A stretch of DNA of 64,000 nucleotides from a virus, in UHGV virus genome UHGV-1550212; one strand, given 5' to 3'. The notes beneath the pieces were generated by a model. It did no database searches. It had not been told where the DNA came from and saw only the letters and a list, made by a program, of their open reading frames with translations. The position numbers and the translations under genes are program-made. Shown piece by piece: positions 4,586 to 61,825 of the stretch; position 1 is the stretch's first letter, and the number at the start of each line of letters is the position of its first letter.

Positions 4586-4652
4586 TGTGCATGAATGTTC
4601 AATATGTAAATTCACTATATGTACATATAACACGAATATTCAAGTTAGATGC

Positions 4653-9835: not shown

Positions 9836-11740
9836 CTACAAAGATTTGAACAATTCCTCGTATGTTACAATTTTCTTGCCTTTTGCAAGTGCTGCTTTCA
9901 TTTTGTTCGACAGCTTGTTGACATCATTTGTGACAACATAGTCACATGCATCAATGTTTGCACCGACATCTTCAAGCTTACCATTTGCTGCATCAATAAA
10001 TGCGCCTTTTGTAGCCCAAGTAGGCTTAGGCGAGCCCGTCATGACAACTTTGATTGCTGCATCATTTGTAGACGTCTCTTTATGCATTTCATTAAACATT
10101 ACGAAGCATTGCGGAAAATGCTTGAGCAATCTTTGTATGACATTCAGCTTTATGAGCTTGTCAATTGGCTCCATGCTCAAGCCCTTAAAGTCATACTGAC
10201 AATTGCTGAAGTATGCAGATAACTGATACGCTGCTTTGCTGCCAAGACCAGGAATCTGCATGCATTCAATGAAATGCGATAAGTAAATGCTACTGAAGCG
10301 TTCACGTAAGCCTGCAATGACTGTACGGTCATTTTTGCTGTTTGTGTCAAACTGCAGCAGCTCAAACAGTCGTTCATTGTCAACTTCTTGCACAATGCAG
10401 AACAAGTCTTCAATTGTGGGCGCATCAGAGAATGTCAACATGACATCAAGATTGTCTTGTGCAATAAGCAAAGCCTCGCAAATTTTCGTAGCATAAACCC
10501 AACCAAGCCCATCGATGTTAAGCTTGCAAACGCCTTTGATAAACCTCGTGCATCTTGCAAATTCCTCAGGCATCATCAAGTGAATGCCATCGACATATGC
10601 ATGTACAGGAATGTCAGCTTTGCTGATATCACCAGGTTCAATACATTCTTGAATGTCTGGAATAATGTCGCCGCCCTTTTCAATACGAACAAGAGCGCCA
10701 GGCCAAATGTCATTTGCATGCAAAAAGCCATAGTGAAATGCTGAAGCTGCTTTTACTGTAGTGCCATCAAGCTCAACAGGCTCAAGTTCAACTCTCGGAA
10801 AAAGCTCACCATTGATTCGCTGACGCCAATCAATTCTAGTCACTCGAGTTACAGCAGACATTGCATCAAGCTTCAATGCAACCATGTTTGCGTATTCTGC
10901 TGCATTTGCAAACTGCTGCTCAATCCACAAGTCATCTGCAAAAGGCTTGACTACAATGCCATCAATGCGATATTTGAATTCTGGGCGTTCATTAGCAATT
11001 TTTGTGCAAGTTTCTGCAAACTCATTGTAATCAGTGACTTCAAAGACTTCTGCAATGAATTCTGCAGGCCAGCCAACTTTAGCAAGAGCATCTGCAGGAT
11101 TGGTTTGCTCATATGTTTTGCCATCAAGTGTGTCAGTCAACATGTATGCCATAGGGTCAATGTCTTCCATGCCACACATATCTAATGACTTCACAAATGC
11201 CGCAGCAGTATTACGCTCATTTTTGTATTTAACTGAGCCATCAGAGTTGAAGTGATACTTTTGTGCAAAAATGTCTTTTGCAATGACAGCTTCAAAGCGA
11301 ATCTGATATGGCTGTTCTGCTGCAGCAAGCTGCATCGGCACTTTGCCTGCTACAACAAATTTGCGCGTGACATCATAGCCCGTATAGCCATCACCACGAG
11401 TAACAACTTTTAGCAATCTGCCATCAGTGTCGTAATGTGCTTCACAGCCCATGCCGTCATACTTGTGCATAAGTAACATTTTATAACCAACAATGTTGCA
11501 CACAATATCATGCAATGTGGTTGTAAACTGTGACTTTGTGTGAATTGCAGCAAGACTTAATGCAGGTGTAAGATGCTTAACTTCTTGCTTGTTTGACTCT
11601 TCAAAACGAATCTTATGTTTAATGTCATCATTTGCAAGAAGCTGCTGTTCAAGAGCATCAAATGCATCATCAGACATTATCGGATTGCCCGCATAATATG
11701 CAGCTATAGCGTCATGGTACGTATTGAGCATGTCAGTCAT
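9836..11740 (-). CDS. ligA: NAD-dependent DNA ligase (LigA-like)
   Basis: Adenylation motif KYDGMGCEAHYDTDGRLLKVVTRGDGYTGYDVT (KxDG ... TRGDG); N-terminal Ia-like YYAGNPIMSDDAFDALEQQLL; 634 aa. Confidence 0.8.
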   Translation of the reverse strand: MTDMLNTYHDAIAAYYAGNPIMSDDAFDALEQQLLANDDIKHKIRFEESNKQEVKHLTPALSLAAIHTKSQFTTTLHDIVCNIVGYKMLLMHKYDGMGCEAHYDTDGRLLKVVTRGDGYTGYDVTRKFVVAGKVPMQLAAAEQPYQIRFEAVIAKDIFAQKYHFNSDGSVKYKNERNTAAAFVKSLDMCGMEDIDPMAYMLTDTLDGKTYEQTNPADALAKVGWPAEFIAEVFEVTDYNEFAETCTKIANERPEFKYRIDGIVVKPFADDLWIEQQFANAAEYANMVALKLDAMSAVTRVTRIDWRQRINGELFPRVELEPVELDGTTVKAASAFHYGFLHANDIWPGALVRIEKGGDIIPDIQECIEPGDISKADIPVHAYVDGIHLMMPEEFARCTRFIKGVCKLNIDGLGWVYATKICEALLIAQDNLDVMLTFSDAPTIEDLFCIVQEVDNERLFELLQFDTNSKNDRTVIAGLRERFSSIYLSHFIECMQIPGLGSKAAYQLSAYFSNCQYDFKGLSMEPIDKLIKLNVIQRLLKHFPQCFVMFNEMHKETSTNDAAIKVVMTGSPKPTWATKGAFIDAANGKLEDVGANIDACDYVVTNDVNKLSNKMKAALAKGKKIVTYEELFKSL

Positions 11741-13213: not shown

Positions 13214-14557
13214 TCAGAATTGAAACATGTTGTTGATAAACGTATCGCCAAACTGCGCATCTGCAGCTTTTGACGTTATGTCATACGTTGCTGCATTGAT
13301 GCCGAGTGCAGTTATTGTTGATTGCGCATCTACAAGTTCATACACTTTGCAGCTTGGCTTTGTAATGTCTGTAAACGACATTGTGTACATGAAGTTTTCA
13401 AAGATATGTCTTGGTACTTCACGTGCATTCAAACATGCAAGTTGTCTATTTTCTGCAAATCGCGCCTTGAGCCATTCAAAGTCATCTGCAGGTACTGAGT
13501 CAACATTCATGAATGTCTTATATGCTGCAGTCAAAAACATTGCAATGACTTCGTCATCATACAAATCTTCACCAAGCATATATCGCATGCCAGGTTCCAA
13601 CTGTTTTGCATTGTCAGTTTCAATACCAAGAGACTTCAATGCATCGTAGATTTGGCCTACAGATAAATGCGACCAATTGTTGCCACGTTTCTTGAGCTTG
13701 CCAAACAATTCTGGGATGTTGTCACCAGCATCACCAAGCACAATCTTGTAAAACAAGAAACTTGGCACATGTTCATGAATCTCTGCATCAACATACTCAA
13801 GCAATGCTGCATATGGGTTGTCAAGAATGCGTGTTTTAACTTGAGCACCAGCAAAGCTGTCGAAGATGCTGCCGCCGACATTCTGCGACTTTTCACCAGC
13901 AAGTTCTTTGATGTGTTCAAGCACAAACTTGTCGCCCATCAGTACTCGAGACTTCTGCCACCCATTTGCTTTGCAGCCATTTTTGATGATTGCATATGCT
14001 GAACATGCGCCAGTGTATGTGTCAACACAAACACATTGAGTCAAGTCTTTGTCAGTGCCTTGATACAACACATTGCGGCCTTTTGACGTTGCATATCTGC
14101 TAAGCATGAAGATGACATCATCAGCTTCTGCTTCAGAAAGCTTAATGTGACGAATGCCATGCACTTCTTGCATCAACTTCAACCAGTCAAAGTATACACC
14201 ATAAACTTTGAGCCAGTTGATTGTCTGGTCATATGTTCGAGTGCCTTTGTAACCAGCATCTTCACCTTGTTCAAAGCCCTCTCTTGTCAAGTATTGATGC
14301 TTTGAGCGCCACAAATTCGACTTTTTGTCATCGACCGCAATGATGACATCATCAACAACATCTTCAAGTCTACGAAGCTCATTACAAAGGTCGAGCGTTA
14401 ACTTGGATATCAAAGACAGTCTTGATGCATTCTCATTCTTTTCGAATGACAAGTCTGTGCCTGATTTTGCTAATACTGGCACTCTGCTCTTCAACCACCA
14501 GCTTCCATCAATTACGTAGATGAACTTGTGATTATGAGTATTGTCAAGCTTTGTCAT
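13214..14557 (-). CDS. 5'-3' exonuclease / flap endonuclease (T4 RNase H-like)
   Basis: FIYVIDGSWW near N-terminus; SEAEADDVIFMLSRY ... GTDKDLTQC resembles T4 RNase H EADDHIAVL ... DGDFTQL; helix-hairpin-helix-like GDAGDNIP. Confidence 0.65.
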   Translation of the reverse strand: MTKLDNTHNHKFIYVIDGSWWLKSRVPVLAKSGTDLSFEKNENASRLSLISKLTLDLCNELRRLEDVVDDVIIAVDDKKSNLWRSKHQYLTREGFEQGEDAGYKGTRTYDQTINWLKVYGVYFDWLKLMQEVHGIRHIKLSEAEADDVIFMLSRYATSKGRNVLYQGTDKDLTQCVCVDTYTGACSAYAIIKNGCKANGWQKSRVLMGDKFVLEHIKELAGEKSQNVGGSIFDSFAGAQVKTRILDNPYAALLEYVDAEIHEHVPSFLFYKIVLGDAGDNIPELFGKLKKRGNNWSHLSVGQIYDALKSLGIETDNAKQLEPGMRYMLGEDLYDDEVIAMFLTAAYKTFMNVDSVPADDFEWLKARFAENRQLACLNAREVPRHIFENFMYTMSFTDITKPSCKVYELVDAQSTITALGINAATYDITSKAADAQFGDTFINNMFQF

Positions 14558-15401: not shown

Positions 15402-15797
15402 TCATCGGTTCTTTGAAAATGAAACTTGTGTTGATTGCTGTGGTCGTATATCGACAAACACTGAATCTACTGCGTCAAACTTAAGTGTCGCAAGTGAATC
15501 AATTGTCTGTCTTGCTTTTTGCAACTTGCGTGCTTTGATGCCTGATACTGTTGCAGACTTTTCAAGCAGATATGCATCACGAGGCGTCCAGTAACGAGCT
15601 TGCCAACGCATATGCATAGAGTCAACAATCAGATTTTCTGCTGCAGCGTCAATAATTGCCGCAGTTGATTGCTGAGTTGCATCAAGTCGTTGCTGCAACA
15701 CTGCTAATTGTTTTGTGTGCTGTTGCTGATGTTTGAATACTATGCTGATTGCTCCAAATAAGAGAAACCATGCAATAAACTGCAAAAATGACTTCAT
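15402..15797 (-). CDS. Hypothetical membrane-anchored protein (N-terminal hydrophobic helix)
   Basis: MKSFLQFIAWFLLFGAISIVF then Gln-rich coiled region; directly downstream of the clamp-loader gene. Confidence 0.45.
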   Translation of the reverse strand: MKSFLQFIAWFLLFGAISIVFKHQQQHTKQLAVLQQRLDATQQSTAAIIDAAAENLIVDSMHMRWQARYWTPRDAYLLEKSATVSGIKARKLQKARQTIDSLATLKFDAVDSVFVDIRPQQSTQVSFSKNR

Positions 15798-16801
15798 GAT
15801 TGCTGCACGAATTTTGAGAGCTCGAATGATAATGCGAGCATTGTTATGAATTGGTCAATTGATTGTTTCGACTCTACACCGTATTTGTGAGCTGCAATGA
15901 CAATGTCTCCAAGTCGTGCAACAAAACCGGGTGTGTTCTTTGAGAGCTTTGCATAGCACCAATTTGCAAAGTCAGTTGAGAGAGCATTGATGACTTCGGT
16001 TTCACGACCTTTGTATTGTGACAGTGTTTTGTAAAATTCACGTGGGTCTTTGCATGCAACAATGAAATCATACAGTTCTTCAAACTTTGCTGACATGCCC
16101 TTTGTGACATGCTCAAGCGTTATATGACGCTCGCCTTGATTGAAGACAAAGTAGCAAATGTTCAGAATTTTGCGGAAGTCTGGGTAGTTATCTTGAATTA
16201 GCTTGATGAGCGCTTCTTTTTCAATTGTGCATTCATTTTCCTTCAAGATATTGTAGACGCGAACCATGCATTTCTTCATCAACTGTTCTGCGACATCATC
16301 AGAAAAGTCGAATGATAGCATTTTGAGACGAGATTGAGCAATTGATGCATCAATGCGGTCTGGATAGTTGCAAGTTGCAATGAAAAACGCGATGCCTGCA
16401 AACTCTTCAATGGTGCCTCTTAAAGCCATCTGACTTTGCACAGATAAAAAATCCATTTCATCAAGCAGCACAACCTTTACGCCACTTGACGACAATGACA
16501 TATGCTGACAGAATTCTGAAATTGTGTTGCGAACTGTGTCAATGCCAGAATTCTTTGAGCAGTTAATTTGCAAAATTGAACGCCTATCAGTCCACTTCAA
16601 TGCCAATGCTCTTGCTGCGGTTGTTTTTCCACTTCCTGGTGCTCCTGCGAACAAATAATTTTGCGGCTGACCATTAAATGCTGCAGCATAATCATCAGGC
16701 ACAATTAACTCTTCGACTTTTGTTGGCCTGTAGCGTTCTAACCAAGTTTTATCTTTAAGGGATGCCATTTGTTGTTTGTTGTGATATGTGATATGATGCA
16801 A
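15794..16801 (-). CDS. Sliding-clamp loader subunit (T4 gp44 / RFC-like AAA+ ATPase)
   Basis: WLERYRPTKVEEL, P-loop AGAPGSGKTTAARALA, Walker B VVLLDEMDFLS, and NYPDFRKILN matching T4 gp44 NFPDFRKTIG. Confidence 0.85.
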   Translation of the reverse strand: MHHITYHNKQQMASLKDKTWLERYRPTKVEELIVPDDYAAAFNGQPQNYLFAGAPGSGKTTAARALALKWTDRRSILQINCSKNSGIDTVRNTISEFCQHMSLSSSGVKVVLLDEMDFLSVQSQMALRGTIEEFAGIAFFIATCNYPDRIDASIAQSRLKMLSFDFSDDVAEQLMKKCMVRVYNILKENECTIEKEALIKLIQDNYPDFRKILNICYFVFNQGERHITLEHVTKGMSAKFEELYDFIVACKDPREFYKTLSQYKGRETEVINALSTDFANWCYAKLSKNTPGFVARLGDIVIAAHKYGVESKQSIDQFITMLALSFELSKFVQQS

Positions 16802-16825: not shown

Positions 16826-16856
16826 ATATGATACAACAAACGTGTCAATTTTGCAC
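16826..16856 (-). promoter_or_regulatory. Promoter-like motif (sense GTGCAAAATTGACACGTTTGTTGTATCATA)
   Basis: Recurrent motif ~25 nt upstream of the clamp-loader start. Confidence 0.45.
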
Positions 16857-17876
16857 AGCATGACCGCAATCGTACACAGGCAAAAAGCCTGCGTCAAGCA
16901 TCTCTTGTGTATCTTGTCCACAATCTTTAACATATTGTCGTGTTTTGAAATTATGCCAATGCTTATGAATTGTTGACTTGTCATCTGACAGCTGTGGATT
17001 GAGCGCGAAGTCAGTCGAGTCTACTGGTTCACCTGCAAGATGCTTTCTAATGGCATCAATGACTTCATTGTCATCCATCCATTCGAATATTGTAATGCAA
17101 GTGTAGCCATGCTTGAGAGCAAGCTGAGTTTTGTTGAAGTGATAGTCGAATGCAAGTGGATGATTATGCGTTGATTTGCCCATTGCATATGCAAATCCAT
17201 ATGCTGCATTGTGTGAAAACGTTGGGTTAATTTCAATGAGCAATTTGCAATGTTCATTGCTGTAGTTCAAATCAAATGAAAATCTATGCAATGAAATTTC
17301 ATCATAGCCACAATTGATGCAAAGTTCTTGCTGCAGTTTATCATGCCAATATTTGTTTATCGCTGAAATTGGGCGACCATTTGCATCTCTGCATCTCTTT
17401 GTCATGCAAAACCATGGCACACCATATCGTTGCAGCGTTGTTGCATTGATTTTTTGTTTAGGCCCAAATGCATTGCCATACAAGCGTTGTTTTGTTTCAA
17501 GCATTTTGTTAATGTTGCTTAGAGAGTCACCCCACTTTGCTCGTTTTGTTTCAATTGATTTTGCGACGTTGCCCCATGCATTGCCGTAGCGCTCTAAATT
17601 TGTTTGTCGTTGTTTAGCGACATTGCCCATGCCATTGCCATATTTTGCACGTTTTGATGCAACCATTTTCGCAGCAACATCTTTGCATTGATTGCTATGT
17701 TCTACACCATATTTGTGCAAACATGCTATTTTTCGATTGTACTTTGTTTTAATTGCGCCATGCGATGTTTTACGTGGCGCATATCTCACAAATGGCGTTT
17801 CTGCAAGCAATTTGTCTCTTTCCTCTTCAAGTTCTTTTATGCGAGCTTCAAGAGCTTCTCCTGTCAATTTTTCCAT
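16845..17876 (-). CDS. Homing-endonuclease-like protein, paralog 2 of 5
   Basis: MEKLTGEALEARIKELEEERDKLLAETPFVRYAPRKTSHG; repeats KYGNGMGN / ERYGNAWGN / LYGNAFGP / LQRYGVPW; C-terminal LLIEINPTFSHN ... GYTCITIFEWMDD ... GFLPVYDCG. Confidence 0.6.
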   Translation of the reverse strand: MEKLTGEALEARIKELEEERDKLLAETPFVRYAPRKTSHGAIKTKYNRKIACLHKYGVEHSNQCKDVAAKMVASKRAKYGNGMGNVAKQRQTNLERYGNAWGNVAKSIETKRAKWGDSLSNINKMLETKQRLYGNAFGPKQKINATTLQRYGVPWFCMTKRCRDANGRPISAINKYWHDKLQQELCINCGYDEISLHRFSFDLNYSNEHCKLLIEINPTFSHNAAYGFAYAMGKSTHNHPLAFDYHFNKTQLALKHGYTCITIFEWMDDNEVIDAIRKHLAGEPVDSTDFALNPQLSDDKSTIHKHWHNFKTRQYVKDCGQDTQEMLDAGFLPVYDCGHAVQN

Positions 17877-18110: not shown

Positions 18111-21100
18111 TCAAAAGCTTCGATTCATCAGTTCATCAGCAAGTCGTTCAAGTTCAGTAGCAGCTTTTTGTCGCTTGGCTTCTCTTTCTGCTTCAACATC
18201 TGCTTTGCTTACTGGCGATTCCAAGTCTTTTGCAGGTGCATCTTCAATAACAGTCAAATTGCTGTCATCAAACTTGTTGTCAATGTCAACTCGTTTGAAT
18301 GATATGATGCCTGATGACACCTGAGCTTCTGCTTGTTGTTTGTCAAATACAAGGCTGCTAATTGTTGATTGCAGTTTTGTAGATGCCAGCAATCGTTCTG
18401 TGTTATCTGCAAAAATGTCATCAGTAAACAATACATGCAGCATTTGAGCAATCGAATCACGACTTCTGCTGCAGCCACTGTCAAATGCAGGCAACTGCTT
18501 AATTGCATAGATGTCGCCATCATGTACAGTAATTGCATTGAACATGCGTCTTGCAATTGATGCCACCGAATCAAGTACATCTGGTGATTGCGGCGTGTAG
18601 CCTCGTGAATCGAAGTATATGAGTGCAGAGTTCTTAACAATTTGGTCGACTACTTCTGATGCAATTGAGACTGCATCTTTGCTGTTATTGAAGACATCAT
18701 TTAGCATATATGACACAATCTTGATGTTCGACTCATGCATTGTGCCACTTGAACCCGCATCAAATATTGACACTGCATCTTTGATTGATTTGAGTCTTGC
18801 AAGTCGATACATGTCTTTGTTGTCAATGACATACATATCGATAGTCTTCATGATGGTGTCAAACAAGTAATGATGCGATAGTGTTCGCAATGCATGTCGC
18901 CAATCATCAAACACTCGTCTGTCTTCTACAAGATATGTAAGCTTGCCATTTTTCTTGACAAGTTCAAATCTGTCTGATTCTTGAACTTGCTCTGCTGGCA
19001 AATTCATGATAACTTCGAATGTAGCCTGATTGACAAATGATGCAAACATTTTGCCAATCTTGCTGTTCTTTTCTTGACGGTACTCTGCTCGAGCTTCTTT
19101 TGCAGCATTGAGAACTTGAGCAATCATCATGTCATCTGCAACAACATCTTGCACGACTTTGCATTCATAGCCATACGATGACAATGTGTTCTGAATGATG
19201 ACAAGCTGAGTAGCCCATTGTCGCCATTTCTGCTCAAACATATTGAGCTTATACGCAGTCAAGTGAATCTTGATTTCACCTGTGTACGGGTCACGATAAA
19301 AGTACGGTGCATTGAATGCCCATTCAAAGAAATCAAAGAGACTTCTTGAGTCATTGCGCTTTGTCTGCATTTGCAAAATGTCCCAGAATGACAGCTTTTC
19401 AACATTTGTTAATGTCAAGTCAAGCTCGTCATATGCAGTAATGTTTCGTGGGTCGCCATTTGATTTTGTCATACTGAAATACACATATGACTGAATGGAT
19501 ATTTTGCGAAGCCGTGAGTTAAATTGTTCGATTTCTTGACCTGTAAATGCCTCGTCATAAATGACATCAAATTCATAGCTGTCATTGATATCAATGCCAA
19601 CTGACAAGTAATTTGTGCAGAACAGCAGTTCAATATCACCAATTGTGCCAGATTCATTGATTGATTGAACAAAGTCATGCATTGCATTGTCACGCTTGTA
19701 GTACTTGACTTTTGGATTTCTGCCAAGCATCATTCGAACTGCGCCTACAATTGCATGAGTAAATGCGTCGCCTTTGTTTGTTGGGAACAGAATTCGTTTG
19801 CCTGCTTTAATTGCTGTTGAGATATGTGATGCAAGTTTTGTAATCTTGTCGCCGTCATGTTTGCAGCAGACAAATCTGACACCTTTGTTGTAATTAAGCG
19901 GCTTGTCGCAGAATATGACAGTGTCAAAATGACAGAACATGTGTTCAGCTACAGGTGTGCCTGTCATCAAAATGACTTTTGTCTGCAACTTTGTTAAGTT
20001 GTCAATCACATTTGCAGGTACAACATCACGATATGCAGACATTGTCAACAAGTGCGATTCGTCGACGACAACATAGTCATATAAAATTGACACTTCCTCT
20101 GGGTCAGCTAATGTAAATTTATCGAATGTCAAAGCTACATTGACATGCTTAGACAATTCAAGACCTCGTTGACCAAATGAGCAATACATGCCAAGGTCTG
20201 ACATCTCAATCTTTGATTGCAAGATTGATGTGTATGGTTCAATCAGCATGACTCGTTTTCCATCACGAGTAAGCTGCTTGATAAATTCTGTCTTGCCTGA
20301 GCCTGGCCGTGCAATCAAGTAATTGATGCCAGTTACAAATACTTCTTCAAGTTCATGCTTGTATGTTGACAAGTACTCATTTTCTGCAAGTTTGAAGACA
20401 TGCGTATGTCGAAGTTCAAAGTCTTTTTGCTGTGCAACTTTCGACATAATGTACTGACTGATTGCATCTTCTGTATTGTGTTCAGCAATCAGTTCATTGA
20501 CAGTTACAGATGACTTGTTAGCAAACTTGAATTTGAAGCCGTGCTTTTCACGAAGTTCTTTGACAGATGACCATACGCACGGACAAGTGCCTGCTGCATT
20601 ACGTTCAACTGCAGACCTGAATGAGTTTGCCCAGCTGTTATGCTCTGCATTGAACTTTGGATTACCCGAACACATTTGCAAGAACATTTGCAACACATGT
20701 TCATATTGACCACCTGTAGTTGACTTCAAATCATATAGCCATGCAAGTGTATAGGCCAAGCGATATCTACCAGTGTTGTCGTAGTTTTGTGGAGTGATTG
20801 TGAGCATTGTGCCCTCTTCAATCATTGTGATGTCATCACGTTGAGTGAAGACTTGCTCGCCGTCAGTCATTGCAGTCATATGAGACTTCGGCGCATAATC
20901 AAAACGACCTCGAAGTCTATCAAACATTGTCTTCAGTTTGTCGATGCAAAATTTTGCATCAACTGAAGCATAGATGCTAACATCAAACTCTGGTTGCTCA
21001 ATGAATTGCGCGTTTTGATTGATGATGACATCTTTATCACGTGCAACAAACAACGGCTGACTAATTTTGCAAACAGATGCATCAACTACTCGAGATTCAG

Positions 21101-21710
21101 ACATTTGACCTGACTTTTCAAGTCGTCTTGACAATGTATTGTTGACAGGATGCACTTCTCGAGCCATGTCATGATTGCCCTCTGATTCAAGCTGGTCACT
21201 CAGCAACACAAGGCATTTCCAAATGACATACAATTTTGCCTCATATGCATCAAGATATGCTTTCTTTGCTGCAGAAGCATTTTCAGATGACACAAATACA
21301 GCATCTTCAGTTTGAATTGACAGAGGCTTTGAGATTGTGTAGACGTGCAAGCCTGAACCAGAAGTCGACTTAAGCACAGCAACACACCACGGATATTTGC
21401 AAAGCATTGCAGCCAAACGTGGTTTGATGACTTCTACAAGTTCTTTTGAGTGAAAGTCCAAATCGACTGGCTGCAGACCTGACCAAGTCAAGTAGTCATG
21501 AACTTGTTGTTTTGGTCGAGCAAACATTGTCGATTGCGACACAAAGGGACGATGTGCTTTATCTACTGTGTCAAGTGACTCATCATTTGCAACTTTCATG
21601 ATGAGGTCATACAATGAAATTTGTTGCTTATTGACAGTGTCTTCTGTTTTACGAACACTGTCGCCCATCATGAACTTTATGCCACTGAGCAAATCTTTGA
21701 CGTTTGACAT
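18111..21710 (-). CDS. Primase-helicase: N-terminal archaeo-eukaryotic-primase-like domain fused to an SF2-type helicase
   Basis: N-terminus VDLDFH (DxD) and STSGSGLHVYT (sGxGxH) fit primase motifs I/II. Helicase motifs ARPGSGKTEF (I), VVVDESH (II), LMTGTP (III), QFNSRLRK (VI). 1199 aa. Confidence 0.55.
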   Translation of the reverse strand: MSNVKDLLSGIKFMMGDSVRKTEDTVNKQQISLYDLIMKVANDESLDTVDKAHRPFVSQSTMFARPKQQVHDYLTWSGLQPVDLDFHSKELVEVIKPRLAAMLCKYPWCVAVLKSTSGSGLHVYTISKPLSIQTEDAVFVSSENASAAKKAYLDAYEAKLYVIWKCLVLLSDQLESEGNHDMAREVHPVNNTLSRRLEKSGQMSESRVVDASVCKISQPLFVARDKDVIINQNAQFIEQPEFDVSIYASVDAKFCIDKLKTMFDRLRGRFDYAPKSHMTAMTDGEQVFTQRDDITMIEEGTMLTITPQNYDNTGRYRLAYTLAWLYDLKSTTGGQYEHVLQMFLQMCSGNPKFNAEHNSWANSFRSAVERNAAGTCPCVWSSVKELREKHGFKFKFANKSSVTVNELIAEHNTEDAISQYIMSKVAQQKDFELRHTHVFKLAENEYLSTYKHELEEVFVTGINYLIARPGSGKTEFIKQLTRDGKRVMLIEPYTSILQSKIEMSDLGMYCSFGQRGLELSKHVNVALTFDKFTLADPEEVSILYDYVVVDESHLLTMSAYRDVVPANVIDNLTKLQTKVILMTGTPVAEHMFCHFDTVIFCDKPLNYNKGVRFVCCKHDGDKITKLASHISTAIKAGKRILFPTNKGDAFTHAIVGAVRMMLGRNPKVKYYKRDNAMHDFVQSINESGTIGDIELLFCTNYLSVGIDINDSYEFDVIYDEAFTGQEIEQFNSRLRKISIQSYVYFSMTKSNGDPRNITAYDELDLTLTNVEKLSFWDILQMQTKRNDSRSLFDFFEWAFNAPYFYRDPYTGEIKIHLTAYKLNMFEQKWRQWATQLVIIQNTLSSYGYECKVVQDVVADDMMIAQVLNAAKEARAEYRQEKNSKIGKMFASFVNQATFEVIMNLPAEQVQESDRFELVKKNGKLTYLVEDRRVFDDWRHALRTLSHHYLFDTIMKTIDMYVIDNKDMYRLARLKSIKDAVSIFDAGSSGTMHESNIKIVSYMLNDVFNNSKDAVSIASEVVDQIVKNSALIYFDSRGYTPQSPDVLDSVASIARRMFNAITVHDGDIYAIKQLPAFDSGCSRSRDSIAQMLHVLFTDDIFADNTERLLASTKLQSTISSLVFDKQQAEAQVSSGIISFKRVDIDNKFDDSNLTVIEDAPAKDLESPVSKADVEAEREAKRQKAATELERLADELMNRSF

Positions 21711-21750: not shown

Positions 21751-21779
21751 TATGATACAACACTTGTGACATTTTTGCT
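21751..21779 (-). promoter_or_regulatory. Promoter-like motif upstream of the primase-helicase gene
   Basis: Plus strand tatgatacaacacttgtgacatttttgc; sense GCAAAAATGTCACAAGTGTTGTATCATA. Confidence 0.4.
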
Positions 21780-22426
21780 TAGAATGCGACACCGACATGT
21801 GCGCCAATCATAGCAGCTTTTGAGTCAACTTTCTTCATGCAGCCTGCATCAAGACCTATACGCCATTGTAAACTACTCTTACCAAATTGACGAGTGTATG
21901 ATAGCCAATACATGTCAATTGATTGCTTGTTAAATGTGCCAAATGCATAGTGAAAGTCTACATTATTTCGTGGTGCATCATGGTCAATGACTTTGATTGT
22001 CGTAGTTTGCACTTCACGAATAACTGTGTCTGCTTTGAACATCAAAACGTCCCAATCACGTTGCTTGATTGTGTTTTGCGTAATGTAGTCTTTTATTGCT
22101 ATTTGCAGTTTGTCTGACTTCAATGTGTCTGCATACTCATACTGTGCAAAGTAGTCATTAACATACTGCATAAGCTTTGTAGTGTCTATGTCAACTACAA
22201 GAGTCGTGTCACGATACACTGGCACTGGTATTGTCTTGCCAGGCATATGAACTGTGTCGTGTTTAATAACAGTGTCAGCTTTGACAATTGGCTCTGCATT
22301 TATAGCATCTTGATATGTTTGCCAGTCTTTTGGGCTGACAAAATGCCAATCTTTGAAAATCATGACAGCAGTCAATACAATGACTGCTGTCATGACTATG
22401 ATTTTGAGTGTCTTCAACATATTCAC
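21779..22426 (-). CDS. Hypothetical membrane-anchored protein (215 aa)
   Basis: N-terminal hydrophobic segment LKIIVMTAVIVLTAVMIF. Confidence 0.5.
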   Translation of the reverse strand: MNMLKTLKIIVMTAVIVLTAVMIFKDWHFVSPKDWQTYQDAINAEPIVKADTVIKHDTVHMPGKTIPVPVYRDTTLVVDIDTTKLMQYVNDYFAQYEYADTLKSDKLQIAIKDYITQNTIKQRDWDVLMFKADTVIREVQTTTIKVIDHDAPRNNVDFHYAFGTFNKQSIDMYWLSYTRQFGKSSLQWRIGLDAGCMKKVDSKAAMIGAHVGVAF

Positions 22427-24022
22427 TTATGCTTTTGCAGTTACAGATGATAAGACAATTCGTTGCAGGAAATTGCCTGCAGTGTCCATAATGTCCCAAG
22501 TAGTACTTGAGCCCTCATTGTTTGACAATGTAAATCTGATGTAATTCGATGTTCTTGTCAATTCATCGCGAATGATATTGTTGCCTGAACGTGCAATGTA
22601 ACTGCCAAATTTTTGCAATGCTATCTGAGCATTGTCTGTGTCAAGCAATGCAATTGATATGTCTACAGAAGAGCCCTTTGGGCAGTTGATTGTCTTGACA
22701 ACGAACAATGATTGAGCATCATCATTTATCACAAGCTTGCTGATAAGCGTAGGCACAGGTCTGTCAATCTGCAAGACTCTATCTACGCCCGCTTTTGCAT
22801 TGCCAATGACTGTCTTTTGATTGATGACTTTATGCACAATGTCATATGATTCAAATTTGACTTGAGGTTTACGATGCCAGCAAAGCATTGCAATGTCATC
22901 TTCAGACAGAATCAATTGCATTGAACGACTTATGCGTACTTGTCCAAGAGTTGACACGTAATCAAGCACAGCAGTAACATACACAAGAGCCATTTTTGGC
23001 TTGTTATCTGGATTGTCATCGTCTACAATGATAGGCGACCATTCAACTGCTTGTGTCGCGTTGTCAACATTTGCAAATTGCATATGTCGTATGCTTGAAT
23101 CTATGAGAACGCCTTCTGCATTGTATGCTTGCAAGATGACGTCATACGTGACATTCGCATCATCAATCAACTCAAGTCTTGAAATCCAATCTGACAGTTG
23201 CATTGTACGATGCTTCATCTGCATTTCAATGCATGCAGGCGCAAATTCGGATTCTTGTCGCAGTACTACATCTGCATACAAAGTCTCATCTTCATTGCCG
23301 GTCAACAGCAATGCTTGTTTGATTTCTCGAAGAGCAAACTGAGTAAATGTTCTGACTGCCCCAGATACAAGTGACTGCTCAAATGAGTAAACTTTGTCAT
23401 CATACACAAGTCCAATCTCAACATTGATATTTGATTGCAATGCTCGTCTTGTAGATGTGCCAAACACGAACTCACGAACTTTAGACATTTCATCACTGTT
23501 CATTGAACACAAGAAGTCAATATCGACAATCTTGAATTCAATTTCAGTAGTGAACTGCTCATTGTCAATGACGACAATCTTGTTTTTGACAGGTGTAAAC
23601 AATGAACGTGCTTTGATGTCAAGCAATGACATCAAACTGTATTTGACATCATCAATGTCAATTGACAGTCTAAGCCAAACGCCAATGACATTTGATGCAT
23701 AACGAAATCCACTGACTGCGTATAATCTGCATGTCAGATATTGCAGTTTGTCAAGCGATGTCGTCTTATATGCCGAATCTGCAAAATTTGCGACAATTGT
23801 GTCTGTGTATGAGTCTGGTGTCAGATATGTCGGCACCTGATATGTAGTGTTTTGTGCAACTGAACTGTATTCACGAACATTGTGTGTTTCTGCACCATCG
23901 GCATTCAATAGATGCACAACACCGCCACTTGCAATCTTATGCAAGGGCACGTCTGTCATGTCGTAGACACTTGAATCACCAATCTCAAGTGCAAAGTCTT
24001 CAGTCAGTCTCAGTCGTTGCAT
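22427..24022 (-). CDS. Hypothetical protein (531 aa)
   Basis: Long ORF; no motif recognised. Confidence 0.55.
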   Translation of the reverse strand: MQRLRLTEDFALEIGDSSVYDMTDVPLHKIASGGVVHLLNADGAETHNVREYSSVAQNTTYQVPTYLTPDSYTDTIVANFADSAYKTTSLDKLQYLTCRLYAVSGFRYASNVIGVWLRLSIDIDDVKYSLMSLLDIKARSLFTPVKNKIVVIDNEQFTTEIEFKIVDIDFLCSMNSDEMSKVREFVFGTSTRRALQSNINVEIGLVYDDKVYSFEQSLVSGAVRTFTQFALREIKQALLLTGNEDETLYADVVLRQESEFAPACIEMQMKHRTMQLSDWISRLELIDDANVTYDVILQAYNAEGVLIDSSIRHMQFANVDNATQAVEWSPIIVDDDNPDNKPKMALVYVTAVLDYVSTLGQVRISRSMQLILSEDDIAMLCWHRKPQVKFESYDIVHKVINQKTVIGNAKAGVDRVLQIDRPVPTLISKLVINDDAQSLFVVKTINCPKGSSVDISIALLDTDNAQIALQKFGSYIARSGNNIIRDELTRTSNYIRFTLSNNEGSSTTWDIMDTAGNFLQRIVLSSVTAKA

Positions 24023-24089: not shown

Positions 24090-24347
24090 TTAATTGTTGA
24101 GATACTGCTGAAGCTCAACTTCTGTTGCAAGTCTACATTGCTTAATATTGAACACTGTCATAATATGACAACTCTTGCATTTATGCCAAATTTCAGCAAC
24201 AGCAGTTTGTGTGTTCTTTGGCAATGAGCGTCTGTACTTGACAATGTCTGTAGTGCCGCAGCATTTACATGTGCCAAGCACTACATACAATTTTGAGTTA
24301 GTCGCGCTCAATTGTGACATGTCTAACTTCTGCTTCTTCATAGCCAT
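24090..24347 (-). CDS. Small zinc-ribbon-like protein
   Basis: CKCCGTTD ... CKSCH Cys pairs; 85 aa; start may be one of three nearby Met. Confidence 0.4.
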   Translation of the reverse strand: MAMKKQKLDMSQLSATNSKLYVVLGTCKCCGTTDIVKYRRSLPKNTQTAVAEIWHKCKSCHIMTVFNIKQCRLATEVELQQYLNN

Positions 24348-25719
24348 GCTCTCTTAGCTTTTCAATGAGTGCTTCAACATCTGCTCGATAAGTGTCACGA
24401 TTGTCAGAACGTTCAACTACTTTGTACTCTTTCTTAAGTTCTACAATCTTTGCTTTTAGTTTTTTCTGCTCATCTTGAGTCAATCTGCTGACTGCAATTT
24501 CAAGAACTTTGTGATTGATTGAATGCTCATCAAGAATAGACTTGACTTGTTTAGTAGTCATCTTATGCAGTACAATGACTTCGTCAAGCACAAGTTGAAT
24601 GAACTTCATGATGTCTTCATACCACTGAATTGTAGTACGAATGTCTTCAAGTCGTTTTTGCTTGCGAATTTCATAGAATTGCAAACGCCACTCGACAAAT
24701 CGCATAATGAGTGAACCGACTGTTTTGTATCGACGAATCTTGTCATCGAAGTCAATGACAGTCAAGTTGTCACGTTCAATTCTGCAGAACATTGCAAGAG
24801 TCCAGTACAATGAGTCTTTTGCAAGCAACTCAACAAGTTTTGCTTTCGTAAACTTTATCTCATACAGAATCTTGTCTTTGTGAGAGTAATTTGTCCATGC
24901 TTCAATAATGTCACGGTCAAGCAGCATATTGAGATGGTTTTCATAGCCATCGAATGTGTTATTGTATGGGATTGCAGTTACATTGACTGTAGTGTCATCA
25001 ACAACTTCCATTCGACCATGATGCTCATATACACCATTGACAAGTCGCCATTCTCCTTGCAAGCCTTTGACATACGGCGTAATTTTGCGTTCAGAAATAT
25101 CTTCGCCATCAAGAGCATCAATAACAGCATTGCAAACTTCAATTGGATTACGATTGATAATTGTGCTTGAATAGCCAACCGCGATGCCCATAATTGAGTT
25201 TAGCAAAATTGTGGGCACAATTGGCAGATAAAATTGCGGCTCAACTTCAATGCCCTCTTGCCAACGATTTGTCAGCAACTCATTGTCTTTCATGAGCAAC
25301 TCAAATGCATCTGACAATCGAACAAAGATGTATCGAGGCGCACCTGCATATGGGCTGTAGAATGTACCAAACTGACCCTCACCAATGAAGTATGGAATGT
25401 TCTGCTTAAAGTCCTGAGACATGATTGTGATATTGCCCTCAAGACTTGTCTGGCCGTGTTCGTAACCACCCTCTGCTTTTACATAGCCCGCAAATGCACC
25501 TACAGTTTGCTTAACACCACCTTTAAGACGCTTGAGCGCAACATACATGATTTTTCGTGCAGTAGGCTTAAAGCCATCACGAACATCAGGTATTGCACGT
25601 TCAAATGCAGTGTGTAACGCATACTCTTTATATCGAGTATTCAAAAATTCCGCAATGGAAATTTGAATATCTTGTTCTGTCAATGGTTCTGTGTAAACTT
25701 CTTGTTTTCGTCGTGCCAT
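24298..25719 (-). CDS. DNA topoisomerase II, GyrA-like breakage-reunion subunit (T4 gp52-like)
   Basis: FLNTRYKEYALHTAFERAIPDVRDGFKPTARKIMYV matches the GyrA/ParC N-terminal signature (RAxPDVRDGxKP). Start placed at MARRKQEVY (ATG 25719) so the promoter motif at 25750-25777 stays upstream. Confidence 0.8.
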   Translation of the reverse strand: MARRKQEVYTEPLTEQDIQISIAEFLNTRYKEYALHTAFERAIPDVRDGFKPTARKIMYVALKRLKGGVKQTVGAFAGYVKAEGGYEHGQTSLEGNITIMSQDFKQNIPYFIGEGQFGTFYSPYAGAPRYIFVRLSDAFELLMKDNELLTNRWQEGIEVEPQFYLPIVPTILLNSIMGIAVGYSSTIINRNPIEVCNAVIDALDGEDISERKITPYVKGLQGEWRLVNGVYEHHGRMEVVDDTTVNVTAIPYNNTFDGYENHLNMLLDRDIIEAWTNYSHKDKILYEIKFTKAKLVELLAKDSLYWTLAMFCRIERDNLTVIDFDDKIRRYKTVGSLIMRFVEWRLQFYEIRKQKRLEDIRTTIQWYEDIMKFIQLVLDEVIVLHKMTTKQVKSILDEHSINHKVLEIAVSRLTQDEQKKLKAKIVELKKEYKVVERSDNRDTYRADVEALIEKLREHGYEEAEVRHVTIERD

Positions 25720-25749
25720 TGTAGCTAATTTGATTTTATTTCCTATATT

Positions 25750-25777
25750 ATTGTACAACGATGTTGTTAGATTTGCA
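25750..25777 (-). promoter_or_regulatory. Promoter-like motif (sense GATGCAAATCTAACAACATCGTTGTACAAT)
   Basis: Recurrent motif ~30 nt upstream of ATG 25719. Confidence 0.45.
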
Positions 25778-32734: not shown

Positions 32735-33029
32735 AATCTGTCAATATAAAGCATCGTACAAGTCTTGAAACGAGTCGTCTATGACCCGTCTCAACTCGTA
32801 TCATATGCTTGGTGAATAGTGGACCTGCTGCTGTAACACAATGTCTGTCAAGGGCATTTAGTACTTTGTTCATTGCAATCAATGGGTGCAAATGACTATT
32901 CGGCCAGCATTCTTCTGCAATGTATGTCAAAATGCCATCGCCATATGACACGACTGCGCATTTGTCTGCAACAAGATGCTTCTTAGCAATCTCTGCAACT
33001 TTCTGTGTAGAACAACACATCACAATCAA
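32709..33029 (-). CDS. Hypothetical protein (106 aa)
   Basis: ORF; 4-nt overlap with the topoisomerase gene end. Confidence 0.4.
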   Translation of the reverse strand: MIVMCCSTQKVAEIAKKHLVADKCAVVSYGDGILTYIAEECWPNSHLHPLIAMNKVLNALDRHCVTAAGPLFTKHMIRVETGHRRLVSRLVRCFILTDYENLHQIQ

Positions 33030-35020
33030 TCATCTGCAGCATCACCATCGAAGCCCATTAGTACTTTGCGTACATGCGCATTGCCGCCGAGCCATGCATT
33101 GATTGCATCCCATGAGTCTTCTTTAGCGACTACTTGTTCGAGTACTGGCGCAGACATAATGTCTTCAAACTCTGTAGAAGTCAATGATGCAAGACCCTTC
33201 TTATGATTGACTTCCCAGTCTTTGCTGCCATTGAATTTGTCTGCGACTTTATTGTAATCATCATAGAAGTAGAACTTTCGCTCTTCACCAGTTTTGCGAT
33301 TGTTGCAAATGATGATTGGCGTGACTACGTTGTACACAAGGCCCATGTCAAATAACTCAGGCCAGAACTTATAGAAGAATAACTGCAGCAATGATGAAAT
33401 GCTGTAGCCATCAACATCAGCATCAGTCAAAATGCAAATCTTGCCATAGCGTAATTTGCGTGGGTCTGCTTTTTCATTGAATCGCAAGCCAAGCGACTGC
33501 ATCAAACCAGCAATTTCAGGCTTTTCTATGAGTTTCTTTGGATTGTCATAGTAGCAATTGCCGATTGACTTACCGCGAATGCAGTAGAAGCCTTGAGTAA
33601 GTGCATTTCGATTGACTCGAATACCTTGTGATGCAGAATCACCTTCTACAATGAATAGCATGCATTCATTACGATTTGTCTTTTGTGCAGCATCTACAAG
33701 TTTATTGACGTGAAACTGCTTTGTCTTGACTTCAAGTTTCTTATTGAGCTCCTTGGCTTCTTTGGCTTTCTCTTTCTCTTCTTCAATCTGTTTCTTGATT
33801 TTGCAGTCCATCAAGATGCGGTCAAGAATTTCAGTTTTTGTCAAGTACTTCTTGAGCTTATCTGAAATGAGAATTGGAAAGCCAAACTTTTGTGTTTTTG
33901 TAGCCAATTTATCTTTGACCTGCGCATCGAATTCAGGATTGGGGATTTTCCACATCGACAAAATTGACATGTGCTTAAATACGTCTTTCTTTGCAGGTTC
34001 AAACCCATATTTGTTTTTGATGTGACTAATCAAAAAGTCTGCGCATACATTCGCGATGAAGTCCATATGCGTGCCATAGTCACATCGAATTGAATTGACT
34101 ATTGCAAAGCTTTCAAAGAAGCCTGCTCTACTTGGACCAATCTCAAAACTGTAGTTTTCGTTTTCATCACCACGAAATTCTTGAGTATGTTCCCATAAGT
34201 CTTTGTATTCCCAGAAGTGTTTGAACTTGAACTCATAGTTTTCACCAGTGACTTCATTGTGCCATTCAACTACAAGTGGATTGTTTACATCGCAGCCCAT
34301 AACTGCGACTTCAATTGCTCGTGATAGCCACTTGTCTACAGTGTCATCTGGAATGTGGTCAAGCGGAGCTGCGTTAATCCACTCCCATCTGCCAAGGTCA
34401 AGATGAGCTTCGATGTATGTAAAATGTTCAGACTTACGGCATTTGCTGACTTTTGCCTCATCATGTCGCCCCATGTTGTCATACCAGCAAATTTCAAGTT
34501 TTTTGCCATCTTTTGCTGTAATGACTTTGAATGACTTAGACATCACATTGACAAGTGACGCGCCAAGACCATTTGTGCCAGACAATGCGCCGCGGTCAGC
34601 AACAAAATTTGAACCAGACCTCAATGAGCCAAATACCATCTGCGGTATGTACTCATTGTACTCTGGATGCATCACTACAGGAATGCCACCGTTGTCCCAT
34701 ACTGCAAGCTTGCCTGTTTTTGGGTTGACTGTGACAGATATGCGATTGACTACTTCTTGTGCATGACTTTGAATGTTACGTTGACGCTCATCAAAACTAT
34801 TATTGATGCACTCATTAAACATTGTATTCAAGCCAATTGACTGATATGTGTCATAGACACGTCGAATCGGTCTTTCAGCATCTTCATATGGACGATACAA
34901 CTCACATTCTTGTTCCGCAAGAAATTCAAGCGAACCTATGTACATGCCGGGCTTCAGTAGACAATGCTCGCGCGATGAAAGTTTTTTGAATTTTTCTGTC
35001 AGAGTGTTTATGTCAGACAT
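33026..35020 (-). CDS. DNA topoisomerase II, GyrB-like ATPase + TOPRIM subunit (T4 gp39/gp60-like, fused)
   Basis: ATPase motifs GLNTMFNECINNSFDE, VWDNGGIPV, GTNGLGASLVNVMS; TOPRIM motifs LFIVEGDSA and KICILTDADVDGYSI. Start at MSDINTL (ATG 35020). Confidence 0.85.
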   Translation of the reverse strand: MSDINTLTEKFKKLSSREHCLLKPGMYIGSLEFLAEQECELYRPYEDAERPIRRVYDTYQSIGLNTMFNECINNSFDERQRNIQSHAQEVVNRISVTVNPKTGKLAVWDNGGIPVVMHPEYNEYIPQMVFGSLRSGSNFVADRGALSGTNGLGASLVNVMSKSFKVITAKDGKKLEICWYDNMGRHDEAKVSKCRKSEHFTYIEAHLDLGRWEWINAAPLDHIPDDTVDKWLSRAIEVAVMGCDVNNPLVVEWHNEVTGENYEFKFKHFWEYKDLWEHTQEFRGDENENYSFEIGPSRAGFFESFAIVNSIRCDYGTHMDFIANVCADFLISHIKNKYGFEPAKKDVFKHMSILSMWKIPNPEFDAQVKDKLATKTQKFGFPILISDKLKKYLTKTEILDRILMDCKIKKQIEEEKEKAKEAKELNKKLEVKTKQFHVNKLVDAAQKTNRNECMLFIVEGDSASQGIRVNRNALTQGFYCIRGKSIGNCYYDNPKKLIEKPEIAGLMQSLGLRFNEKADPRKLRYGKICILTDADVDGYSISSLLQLFFYKFWPELFDMGLVYNVVTPIIICNNRKTGEERKFYFYDDYNKVADKFNGSKDWEVNHKKGLASLTSTEFEDIMSAPVLEQVVAKEDSWDAINAWLGGNAHVRKVLMGFDGDAADD

Positions 35021-35050
35021 GTCTGTAAATTGAGATGTTTGTATATGTAT

Positions 35051-35079
35051 ATTGTACAACAAGAATGCAAAACTTGCAC
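35051..35079 (-). promoter_or_regulatory. Promoter-like motif (sense AGTGCAAGTTTTGCATTCTTGTTGTACAAT)
   Basis: About 30 nt upstream of ATG 35020. Confidence 0.45.
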
Positions 35080-35207
35080 TGAAAATATACACATTTTCAC
35101 ATAACAGCAAGCATAATGCCAAGCAGCACTGCAAGACATATCAAACCTATGCCAAGAACAATAAAGTCCAGCATAGAATACGTGTCATTAGACTGTTTCA
35201 TAAGTAG

Positions 35208-36134
35208 TTATCGCAATTGATTCTTTGCAATGAATGCATTGATGTGCTCTGGCTTGCATACAGCACGATAGTAGAGTTCAAATACTCGTTTAGCAGATGG
35301 CAATTTGCATGCAGTCAAATCTTTATTTTGCATTATAACACCAGTGATGTACTTAATGTCATGTCGTTCAATGTCTGAACAATTATGCTTTGCAGCAAAT
35401 TCAAATGCTTGCTTGATAATTTTTGAACATTCTGCTGTGGTGCATTGCTGAAACGCTATGCAAAACTCTGCATAAGTGCTGCAGTCATTTTGCAGATGTA
35501 ATGCAACAGATGATTTCAACATTGATTCTGTTAAGTACTTTGGCAGCTTGCACAAAATTTTGACGTACTTGCACTTGTCATCTGTCACATGCACGTAGCC
35601 AGACACTGCAAGCATTCTAACATATCGAACAAGTTCTCTATGCTGTAGTGCTGTGCGCAGTATGACATTATTTTGCAGCAAAATTTCATTGTCAACTGTG
35701 CAGTTAAGTGGCAATGTGTTGTATGCTACTTTAAGATACGATAGCTTCGTTAATTGTTGTAAGCCATCATAGCCAACAAAATCTGCTGGCACAATCAGTG
35801 GCAGACTGCAAACGACTTGTCGATTATTTCTGTCAACAATTGTGATTGCTGGGTTTTGCAAGTCAAGCACAGATTTTGAGCAAAACACTTGCATGACACC
35901 TTGAACTGTGACAAATCCGAAGTTCTTGCACAATTGCATATTGCATGTACGAGCTTCTGCTGCGCTAATTGTTGCAATGGGCAACTGTTTGTCGCTACGC
36001 ACATGCATTGGAGCTGGCCATATTGGGTCAGCTCTCAATACAAGCACATGTTTATTGCAGTCATATATTGCAGCAAAATCTGCAAGATTGCTGATGTATC
36101 TTAAAGTAGTGTTACAAATCCCATTCATATGCAT
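35208..36134 (-). CDS. Hypothetical Cys-rich protein (start uncertain)
   Basis: ORF 35208..36350 trimmed to internal Met MHMNGICNT because the N-terminal part overlaps the upstream gene out of frame. Confidence 0.45.
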   Translation of the reverse strand: MHMNGICNTTLRYISNLADFAAIYDCNKHVLVLRADPIWPAPMHVRSDKQLPIATISAAEARTCNMQLCKNFGFVTVQGVMQVFCSKSVLDLQNPAITIVDRNNRQVVCSLPLIVPADFVGYDGLQQLTKLSYLKVAYNTLPLNCTVDNEILLQNNVILRTALQHRELVRYVRMLAVSGYVHVTDDKCKYVKILCKLPKYLTESMLKSSVALHLQNDCSTYAEFCIAFQQCTTAECSKIIKQAFEFAAKHNCSDIERHDIKYITGVIMQNKDLTACKLPSAKRVFELYYRAVCKPEHINAFIAKNQLR

Positions 36135-44988: not shown

Positions 44989-45029
44989 TGTAACAGTGCA
45001 TTTAAGTGTTTTAACTGTTTTATGTATAA

Positions 45030-45057
45030 ATTGTACAACAATGGGCAAAATTTTGCA
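45030..45057 (-). promoter_or_regulatory. Promoter-like motif (sense TGATGCAAAATTTTGCCCATTGTTGTACAAT)
   Basis: About 40 nt upstream of the reductase ATG; its TGCAAA element lies inside the left arm of the hairpin at 45055-45108. Confidence 0.45.
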
Positions 45058-59790: not shown

Positions 59791-60021
59791 CAATGAATAC
59801 GTTTGTCAGAAACTGTCAATGTGTGCAATCGCTTGAAGAGTTAGCTGAACAGCTTGTTGATGCGATTGCTGCATTGGTGACTACCAAGCAGCCCATTGAA
59901 CATTGGATTCGACATCAACGTCTTTGTGGTTGTTGTTGAACTCACCAAGCCAGCAAGTATCATTTAGCAAGTTTCCAAACTTAACGTACTTGTCGTTCCC
60001 CGGCTTGGGTGGCGCAGGTTG

Positions 60022-61737: not shown

Positions 61738-61825
61738 GATTGAATTTGTTTGTTATTGAAAGTGAAACATATATTTCTGTATAATATGTATAGAACTACT
61801 GACATTGATTGAATTGTGAAAATGG

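Follow-up and report, generated by a model that had tools for sequence, protein, structure and literature searches.

We describe here a gene in a 64,000-nucleotide stretch of the virus genome UHGV-1550212 (referred to throughout as the window) that encodes a putative primase-helicase, in which an archaeo-eukaryotic primase (AEP) domain and a superfamily 2 (SF2) helicase core are joined in one protein. We think it probable, at roughly 0.65, that this is the phage's own primase-helicase, a single polypeptide for the jobs that T4 splits between gp61 and gp41. Nearly all replicative helicases form hexameric rings, and the standard example of a DnaB-type ring acting with a DnaG-type primase comes from the T4-like phages. 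The architecture and the proposed role are already known, having been published as a one-sentence computational prediction for gp68 of Sphingomonas phage PAU, in which Kazlauskas et al. 2016 (PMC4889955) recognised an SF2 helicase carrying an AEP domain, and which they considered a likely replicative helicase. Our analysis adds the assignment to a divergent BT4734-like subfamily, a family of about 100 proteins, the placement of the gene in a replication module, and explicit negative results for DnaB and DnaG.

The gene is a single open reading frame (ORF) at 18111..21710 on the minus strand, with an ATG start and 1199 amino acids (aa) plus a stop codon in the ORF listing of the window, exactly as the original prediction had it. 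That prediction also pointed to primase-like motifs (VDLDFH and STSGSGLHVYT) and SF2 helicase motifs (GSGKT, DESH, TGTP, and QxxSRxR), each of which is present once, with catalytic and key residues that do not vary in an alignment of 11 full-length homologs (39-79% identity); because they are invariant in homologs, the quoted motifs are not chance matches. On the primase side D83, D85, S115-G118, G120, H122, and D210 are all invariant, as are G470, K473, T474, D550, E551, H553, G584, T585, Q729, R733, and R735 on the helicase side. The domains and motifs of the protein are as follows.

21000..21620 (-), residues ~31-237: AEP primase domain of the BT4734-like/VirE_N type
21450..21467 (-), residues 82-87: AEP motif I, VDLDFH, invariant, with D83 and D85 as predicted metal ligands
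21336..21368 (-), residues 115-125: AEP motif II, STSGSGLHVYT, with H122 as predicted nucleotide contact and S115, S117, G118, G120, and H122 invariant
21057..21089 (-): AEP motif III region, VVDASVCKISQ, with the invariant D210 as predicted third metal ligand
20415..20843 (-), residues 290-432: conserved helical middle domain, with many invariant residues and helical in the AlphaFold2 (AF2) model
19131..20393 (-), residues ~440-860: SF2 helicase core with two RecA-like domains, from the AF2 model, Foldseek, and Pfam in relatives
20286..20312 (-), residues 467-475: Walker A (helicase motif I), ARPGSGKTE, with G470, G472, K473, and T474 invariant
20052..20063 (-), residues 550-553: Walker B (helicase motif II), DESH, with D550, E551, and H553 invariant
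19953..19964 (-), residues 583-586: helicase motif III, TGTP, with G584 and T585 invariant
19506..19526 (-), residues 729-735: helicase motif VI (arginine finger), QFNSRLR, with Q729, R733, and R735 invariant
18336..19130 (-), residues 861-1125: lineage-specific, mostly helical C-terminal domain, confidently modelled by AF2
18114..18335 (-), residues 1126-1199: variable acidic linker and conserved terminal amphipathic helix (L..LA..L)

By profile and fold comparison the N-terminus is an AEP domain, best filed as a putative divergent BT4734-like/VirE_N subfamily that curated models miss. Searches with the whole protein give only a marginal DEAD match in Pfam and nothing in PHROGs or NCBIfam, phmmer against the PDB returns only a spurious CARDS-toxin match (E 0.34), and there is no match to PF08800 (BT4734-like_N, formerly VirE_N) even at E<=1, the gathering cutoff being 22.4 bits. 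Because the direct Pfam, PHROGs, NCBIfam, and PDB sequence searches miss the primase domain, a family profile (A2) was built from residues 1-432 of eight homologs and searched against 1.84 billion representative proteins. At E<=1e-3 this yields no more than 102 proteins, most of them 1000-1700 aa long, and a profile search of the PDB with A2 finds nothing. Among 41 distant matches (14-24% mutual identity) the invariant columns other than the start Met, mapped onto the window protein through the alignment, are Gly78, the Asp pair of DxD, the Ser and His of motif II, and the Asp of motif III, and the three invariant motifs of the family are motifs I, II, and III of the published AEP definition. 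PF08800 is matched by 12 of the 41 at E<=0.01, and Pfam finds a VapE domain in three and a DnaB_C domain in one. Four AEP-SF2 fusion proteins score 17.4-21.7 bits on PF08800, just below its cutoff, and P0113, in which the AEP domain is fused to a DnaB-type helicase, reaches 55.3 bits over residues 54-168, overlapping the segment matched by A2 (47-136).

The canonical PF08800 proteins gathered via P0113 have, by eye, the same motif series (DFDMK; SASGKGIH; ID..CSNISR.LFVSHDP...IN), and hhalign aligns the family profile with PF08800 proteins over 143 columns at 98% probability (E 3e-13), keeping motifs I-III in register, whereas reversed, column-shuffled, and unrelated control templates give 0.1-2.5%. 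Motif I is aligned to DFD/DID, motif II to SASGKGIH, and motif III to ID..CSNISR, and the extended motif III that is specific to the family (.D..C..IS...F...D....N) is also in register; relative to canonical PF08800 there is a helical insertion of ~60 residues (~140-200) between motifs II and III. Fold searches with the N-terminus have AEP primase-polymerases and phage VirE_N primase-helicases among their matches, and structural matches in BFVD are labelled 'Virulence-protein E, N-terminal'. Both the AEP catalytic fold and the motif set of the AEP superfamily (PVDLD, SGSGLH, VVD) are thus present, and the proposal of a primase-polymerase-like N-terminus is borne out by the profile-profile comparison and the fold searches together. 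De novo primer synthesis is the activity predicted for this domain. The homologous primase domains of the PF08800 family, which include those of Bacteroides BT4734, the primase/helicase/VirE of Cellulophaga phage phiST, CAPP_B, and AgaPP, carry the same motifs (DxD, S.SG.G.H, and the extended motif III); primer synthesis in vitro has been shown for the BT4734-like AEPs CAPP_B and AgaPP, and CAPP_B makes DNA primers on DNA templates.

One could argue that the AEP-like domain has lost catalysis and serves only a structural or regulatory purpose, in which case the protein would be no more than a helicase. The GenBank records of the PAU, PTm1, and pT24 orthologs do read 'helicase' or 'DNA helicase' (across the orthologs there is only 'helicase' or 'hypothetical protein'), and the primase domain escapes direct Pfam, PHROGs, and NCBIfam searches. 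However, all three catalytic motifs are invariant in ~100 representative proteins with identities down to 14%, which is unexpected of a dead domain, and the AEP domain recurs with three different types of helicase, so that we regard this account as very improbable. The AEP domain and this SF2 helicase occur together in about 75 of 114 family proteins, and in other members the AEP domain accompanies VapE-type or DnaB-type helicases, as replicative primases usually do. In the canonical PF08800 family the primase is fused to or beside VirE/VapE (SF3-like), DnaB-like, or DUF3987 helicases, not SF2. By the same sequence comparisons, about 100 representative proteins, encoded on large viral contigs, make up a family defined by the AEP-SF2 fusion.

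By motifs and modelled structure, residues ~440-860 are a complete SF2 helicase core, for which an unwinding activity and its polarity are predicted. The motif set is complete and conserved (motif I GSGKT, Ia PYTSI, II DESH, of the DExH type, III TGTP, V TNYLSVGID, VI QFNSRLR), and while Pfam DEAD is marginal in the window protein, DEAD/ResIII is clear in 28-30 of 41 family members. The AF2 model of residues 433-1199 has a predicted local distance difference test score (pLDDT) of 83, and Foldseek against the PDB yields 571 matches at E<=1e-3, all of them to SF2-type two-RecA cores. The top matches are RECQL5, Hel308, BLM, and the Pol theta helicase domain, with identities of 9-16% that point to no specific SF2 subfamily. 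In two distant homologs, P0053 (~720-1058) and P0048 (~701-1001), a class-1 intein with Hint plus homing-endonuclease/LAGLIDADG domains sits exactly in the Walker A loop (PGTGK/C...HN/TQF, with slashes at the junctions); in ATPases of replication and repair, this loop is where inteins are classically inserted.

The middle (290-432) and C-terminal (861-1125) domains are alignable only among the closest relatives, and are detected in only ~30 and ~21 of the 114 family proteins respectively. A PriCT-like helical domain was considered for the middle domain and rejected, hhalign giving 0.1% against the region that follows the AEP domain in PF08800 proteins. With the C-terminal domain, Pfam at E<=1 returns noise only and a PDB profile search (profile A7) returns nothing. 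The tail (1126-1199) consists in the model of a low-pLDDT linker followed by a helix at model residues 737-765, with 17 D/E against 11 K/R, and the terminal L..LA..L pattern is common to the homologs; an acidic linker with a terminal amphipathic helix is the layout typical of partner-docking tails.

That 290-432 and 861-1125 are both conserved and without known relatives is what an origin-specific initiator might present, comparable to pRN1 ORF904, P4 alpha, or N15 RepA. The middle or C-terminal domain would then recognise the origin, and the protein would melt it and lay the first primer, leaving later forks to recombination-dependent replication or host proteins. Plasmid and phage AEP-helicase fusions are often initiators and often have C-terminal DNA-binding domains, but hhalign, Pfam, and PDB profile searches recognise no winged-helix or other DNA-binding fold in either domain. 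An initiator role is compatible with a role at the fork, so this explanation overlaps with a phage-encoded primase-helicase; taken alone it seems to us quite unlikely.

In a metagenome protein collection there are 14 full-length homologs of the 1199-aa protein, with identities of 39-99%. Chryseobacterium phages MA9V-1 and MA9V-2 have orthologs with 41% identity over 93% of the protein, and weaker matches are to the 'helicases' of Tenacibaculum phages pT24 (ORF13), PTm1 (ORF-117), and PTm5 and of Sphingomonas phage PAU (gp68). The PAU, PTm1, PTm5, pT24, and MA9V-1 orthologs share the architecture of the window protein, with an N-terminal AEP domain, a helicase of the same SF2 family, and a long C-terminal region. 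PAU gp68, which is 33% identical over the helicase, PTm1 ORF-117, and pT24 ORF13 differ from the window protein in having an extra N-terminal extension of ~100-200 residues, and it is in these long extensions that the AEP domain lies (for PAU, domain E 1.4e-20 against the family profile in a five-sequence local search). The presence of the domain in these three orthologs makes the fusion a hallmark of the whole phage group.

Among better-studied proteins, a similar plan is found in the RepA-type proteins of N15 and PY54, beside which a listing in PMC4889955 places PAU gp68 under SF2, and whose DnaG-SF2 primase-helicases are, by that listing, experimentally confirmed as a primase domain N-terminal to an SF2 replicative helicase. 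Compared by description, they differ in having a DnaG/Toprim-type primase domain instead of an AEP and in belonging to small temperate linear-plasmid prophages. According to the same source, a virus encodes an AEP homolog or a DnaG homolog but not both, with a single exception. T4 gp61/gp41 and T7 gp4 have a job like the one proposed here, unwinding with lagging-strand priming within a T4-type replisome. The folds are unrelated, however: those primosomes use a Toprim primase and a RecA-type SF4 hexameric ring, whereas the window protein has an AEP domain (with an RNA-recognition-motif-like palm) and a two-RecA-domain SF2 core.

The original prediction took the DNA to be that of a T4-like phage, which is right in that T4-type genes are present; it is not a T4 relative in the narrow sense. 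The T4-type Pfam assignments make it a jumbo phage that is T4-like but very distant, within the PAU/PTm1/pT24/MA9V group, its nearest isolates being Chryseobacterium phage MA9V-1, Sphingomonas phage PAU, and Tenacibaculum phages PTm1 and pT24. The genes assigned with Pfam are listed here.

4425-6644: T4-type large terminase
9836-11740: NAD-dependent ligase
13214-14557: RNase H-like 5'-3' exonuclease
15794-16801: gp44-type clamp loader
24298-25758: topoisomerase II, A subunit
33026-35134: topoisomerase II, B subunit
41767-45048 (-): intein-containing ribonucleotide reductase
60022-61737: gp23-type major capsid protein

The host reported for PAU is a Sphingobacterium, and on that basis the isolates of the group all infect Bacteroidota. 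Iyer et al. 2021 (PMC7824862) assign PTm1 to group 2.2 and have group 2 derived from T4-like ancestors. The primase-helicase gene holds a conserved position in a replication module. In the window and in a 154-kb metagenomic relative the order is topoisomerase II B, further along topoisomerase II A, two ORFs, the AEP-SF2 gene, clamp loader, RNase H-like exonuclease, and NAD-dependent ligase. The MA9V-1 ortholog (MA9V1_230) lies between the topoisomerase II genes and the clamp loader, the PAU ortholog likewise has the clamp loader nearby, downstream, and the pT24 ortholog has the ligase downstream.

Whether the gene replaces the T4-type primosome depends on what else the phage encodes. Pfam finds no DnaB_C, Toprim/DnaG, or zf-CHC2 domain in the primase-helicase or in the window ORFs of at least 150 aa, a few nested ORFs being outside the scan. 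The complete 213.5-kb genome of MA9V-1 has no primase annotated, and a Pfam sweep at E<=1e-4 over its 56 unannotated ORFs of at least 250 aa (annotated ORFs and one 2373-aa ORF stood outside the sweep) finds no DnaB or DnaG, whereas it does find gp32, gp23, and SbcCD-like, RNase H-like, UvsW-like, and Rad3-like proteins. The original prediction proposed replacement of the replication-initiation module and suggested a genome-wide search for gp41 and gp61 homologs; none is found, within a scope of the 64-kb window and the relative MA9V-1, and the replacement interpretation is supported as far as sequence analysis allows. The T4-type replisome genes found in the group are a B-family polymerase, clamp, clamp loader, and gp32. 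In MA9V-1, of the complete genomes the closest relative, the B-family DNA polymerase is annotated as two genes, 'DNA polymerase II' (110343-111830) and 'DNA polymerase family B' (114019-115296), separated by two ORFs; there is no polymerase within the window.

If the protein is the phage's primase-helicase, a plausible sequence of events can be proposed. The SF2 motor (~440-860) would hydrolyse ATP through the Walker A K473, the Walker B D550/E551, and the arginines R733/R735, and would translocate on DNA, so that template becomes single-stranded at the fork or in recombination intermediates. The AEP domain would hold two divalent metal ions through D83, D85, and D210, with H122 positioning the incoming nucleotide, and would lay short primers de novo on the exposed strand. 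These could be extended by the phage B-family polymerase with the T4-type clamp and clamp loader, and the Okazaki fragments processed by the RNase H-like 5'-3' exonuclease and NAD-dependent ligase encoded nearby. The C-terminal domain, with the acidic tail and terminal helix, probably docks a partner, for example the polymerase, the clamp, another protomer, or the single-strand-binding protein.

Several considerations weigh against a replicative primase-helicase. SF2 helicases act as monomers or dimers, and rarely as replicative helicases. A small or very divergent DnaG-like primase could have been missed by the MA9V-1 sweep, the searched window covers only 64 kb so that a DnaB/DnaG pair may lie elsewhere in the phage genome, and the phage could borrow the DnaB and DnaG of its host. 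Iyer et al. 2021 (PMC7824862) include a general statement that DnaG-like primases occur in group 2, to which PTm1 belongs. The function of the fusion family stands throughout as a computational prediction, and our literature search turned up no experiments on any member. Only one AEP-SF2 fusion has been studied biochemically, the IS-excision enhancer (IEE) of E. coli, with an N-terminal AEP and a C-terminal SF2 helicase-like domain; it is a repair-type polymerase in which unwinding is undetectable, so that a complete set of SF2 motifs is no assurance of unwinding (PMC9943667).

IEE also informs the main rival explanation, in which the protein would be a primase-polymerase for repair or damage tolerance, coupled to an SF2 translocase and serving repriming, translesion synthesis, or microhomology-mediated end joining, with fork unwinding and priming left to host DnaB/DnaG or an unrecognised phage system. 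The analogy would be with IEE, whose fused AEP and SF2 domains show Mn-dependent polymerase and end-joining activities but no unwinding (PMC9943667), and with Pol theta. The BT4734-like AEP AgaPP also carries out translesion synthesis and end joining, and the proteins that match the helicase half best in structure are helicases of DNA repair (the RecQ family, Hel308, and the Pol theta helicase domain). Kinship with IEE was looked for and rejected: hhalign gives 0.5% for the AEP domain and 14% for the helicase, with IEE as a single-sequence template, and the family hidden Markov models give no significant match, so that on sequence grounds IEE is an independent fusion and offers an analogy only. 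We consider a repair or damage-tolerance role unlikely.

Returning to a replicative primase-helicase, a more specific version would have a non-hexameric SF2 motor, joined to a BT4734-like AEP, drive a T4-type replisome, by which we mean a B-family polymerase, gp45-like clamp, gp44/62-like loader, and gp32-like single-strand-binding protein. This would be a third, mechanistically distinct phage primosome, an idea we put forward tentatively and hold to be possible but doubtful. RecQ/Hel308-type helicases, which are among the best structural matches, have 3'-5' polarity, and if the motor shared it, it would run along the leading-strand template, like the eukaryotic CMG helicase, and prime the other strand; coupling to the polymerase or clamp would fall to the unique C-terminal domain. 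The predicted SF2-based primosome inside a T4-type replisome is the unusual part, and has already been noted in the literature.

This Bacteroidota jumbo-phage lineage appears to keep the T4-type polymerase, clamp, loader, and single-strand-binding protein but to use an AEP-SF2 fusion, and may be seen as a natural experiment in replisome modularity. Biochemical confirmation would reveal in what way an SF2 motor working as a monomer or dimer can serve a replisome that depends on a clamp, and would add a replicative role to the BT4734-like primases, so far studied mainly in defence-associated contexts. A practical consequence is that phages of this group would be scored as primase-less, since the curated Pfam, PHROG, and NCBIfam models miss the primase domain.

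Other features of the window are noted here. Directly upstream of the primase-helicase gene are ORFs at 21779-22426 (-), of 215 aa with a hydrophobic N-terminal helix, and 22427-24022 (-), of 531 aa; ORFs of 218 and 543 aa lie at the position of this pair in a metagenomic relative (L009), and the searches assign neither ORF of the pair to a family. A multi-copy family of 340-460 aa with 36-47% mutual identity and weak matches to Pfam DUF7487 is encoded at 16845-17876 (-), 3290-4633, 58613-59674, and 61826-63217, with a partial match at 57483-58565. The copy at 16845-17876 is wedged between the primase-helicase and clamp loader genes, in a slot that is empty in L009, a 50%-identical relative, and that holds a different paralog, only 40% identical, in a 99%-identical relative (L013). 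These paralogs look like homing-endonuclease-like mobile genes turning over. The latter relative, IMG/VR contig IMGVR_UViG_3300045988_149023 (175,564 bp), has a copy of the primase-helicase gene that is 99% identical and a clamp loader that is 97.6% identical, and is probably the same or a sister phage.

The 1068-aa ORF at 38447-41653 (-) has no Pfam or PHROG match, nor do those at 22427-24022 (531 aa), 45942-47483 (513 aa), and 35208-36350 (380 aa). PHROGs v4 matched none of ten neighbouring or unassigned ORFs, and none of the 11 window proteins tested overall, and the lineage appears to be poorly covered by current phage family libraries. A megablast of 10 kb of the window against phage records gave no match, and in a promoter and terminator scan around the gene the counts were at chance level, the sigma-70 consensus being a poor model for Bacteroidota hosts. 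The 1093-aa large subunit of ribonucleotide reductase contains an intein-splicing domain (~338-517) and a C-terminal TSCPD domain. The G+C content is 0.49 at 60001-62000, against a window average of about 0.40, and this rise coincides with the gp23-type capsid gene.

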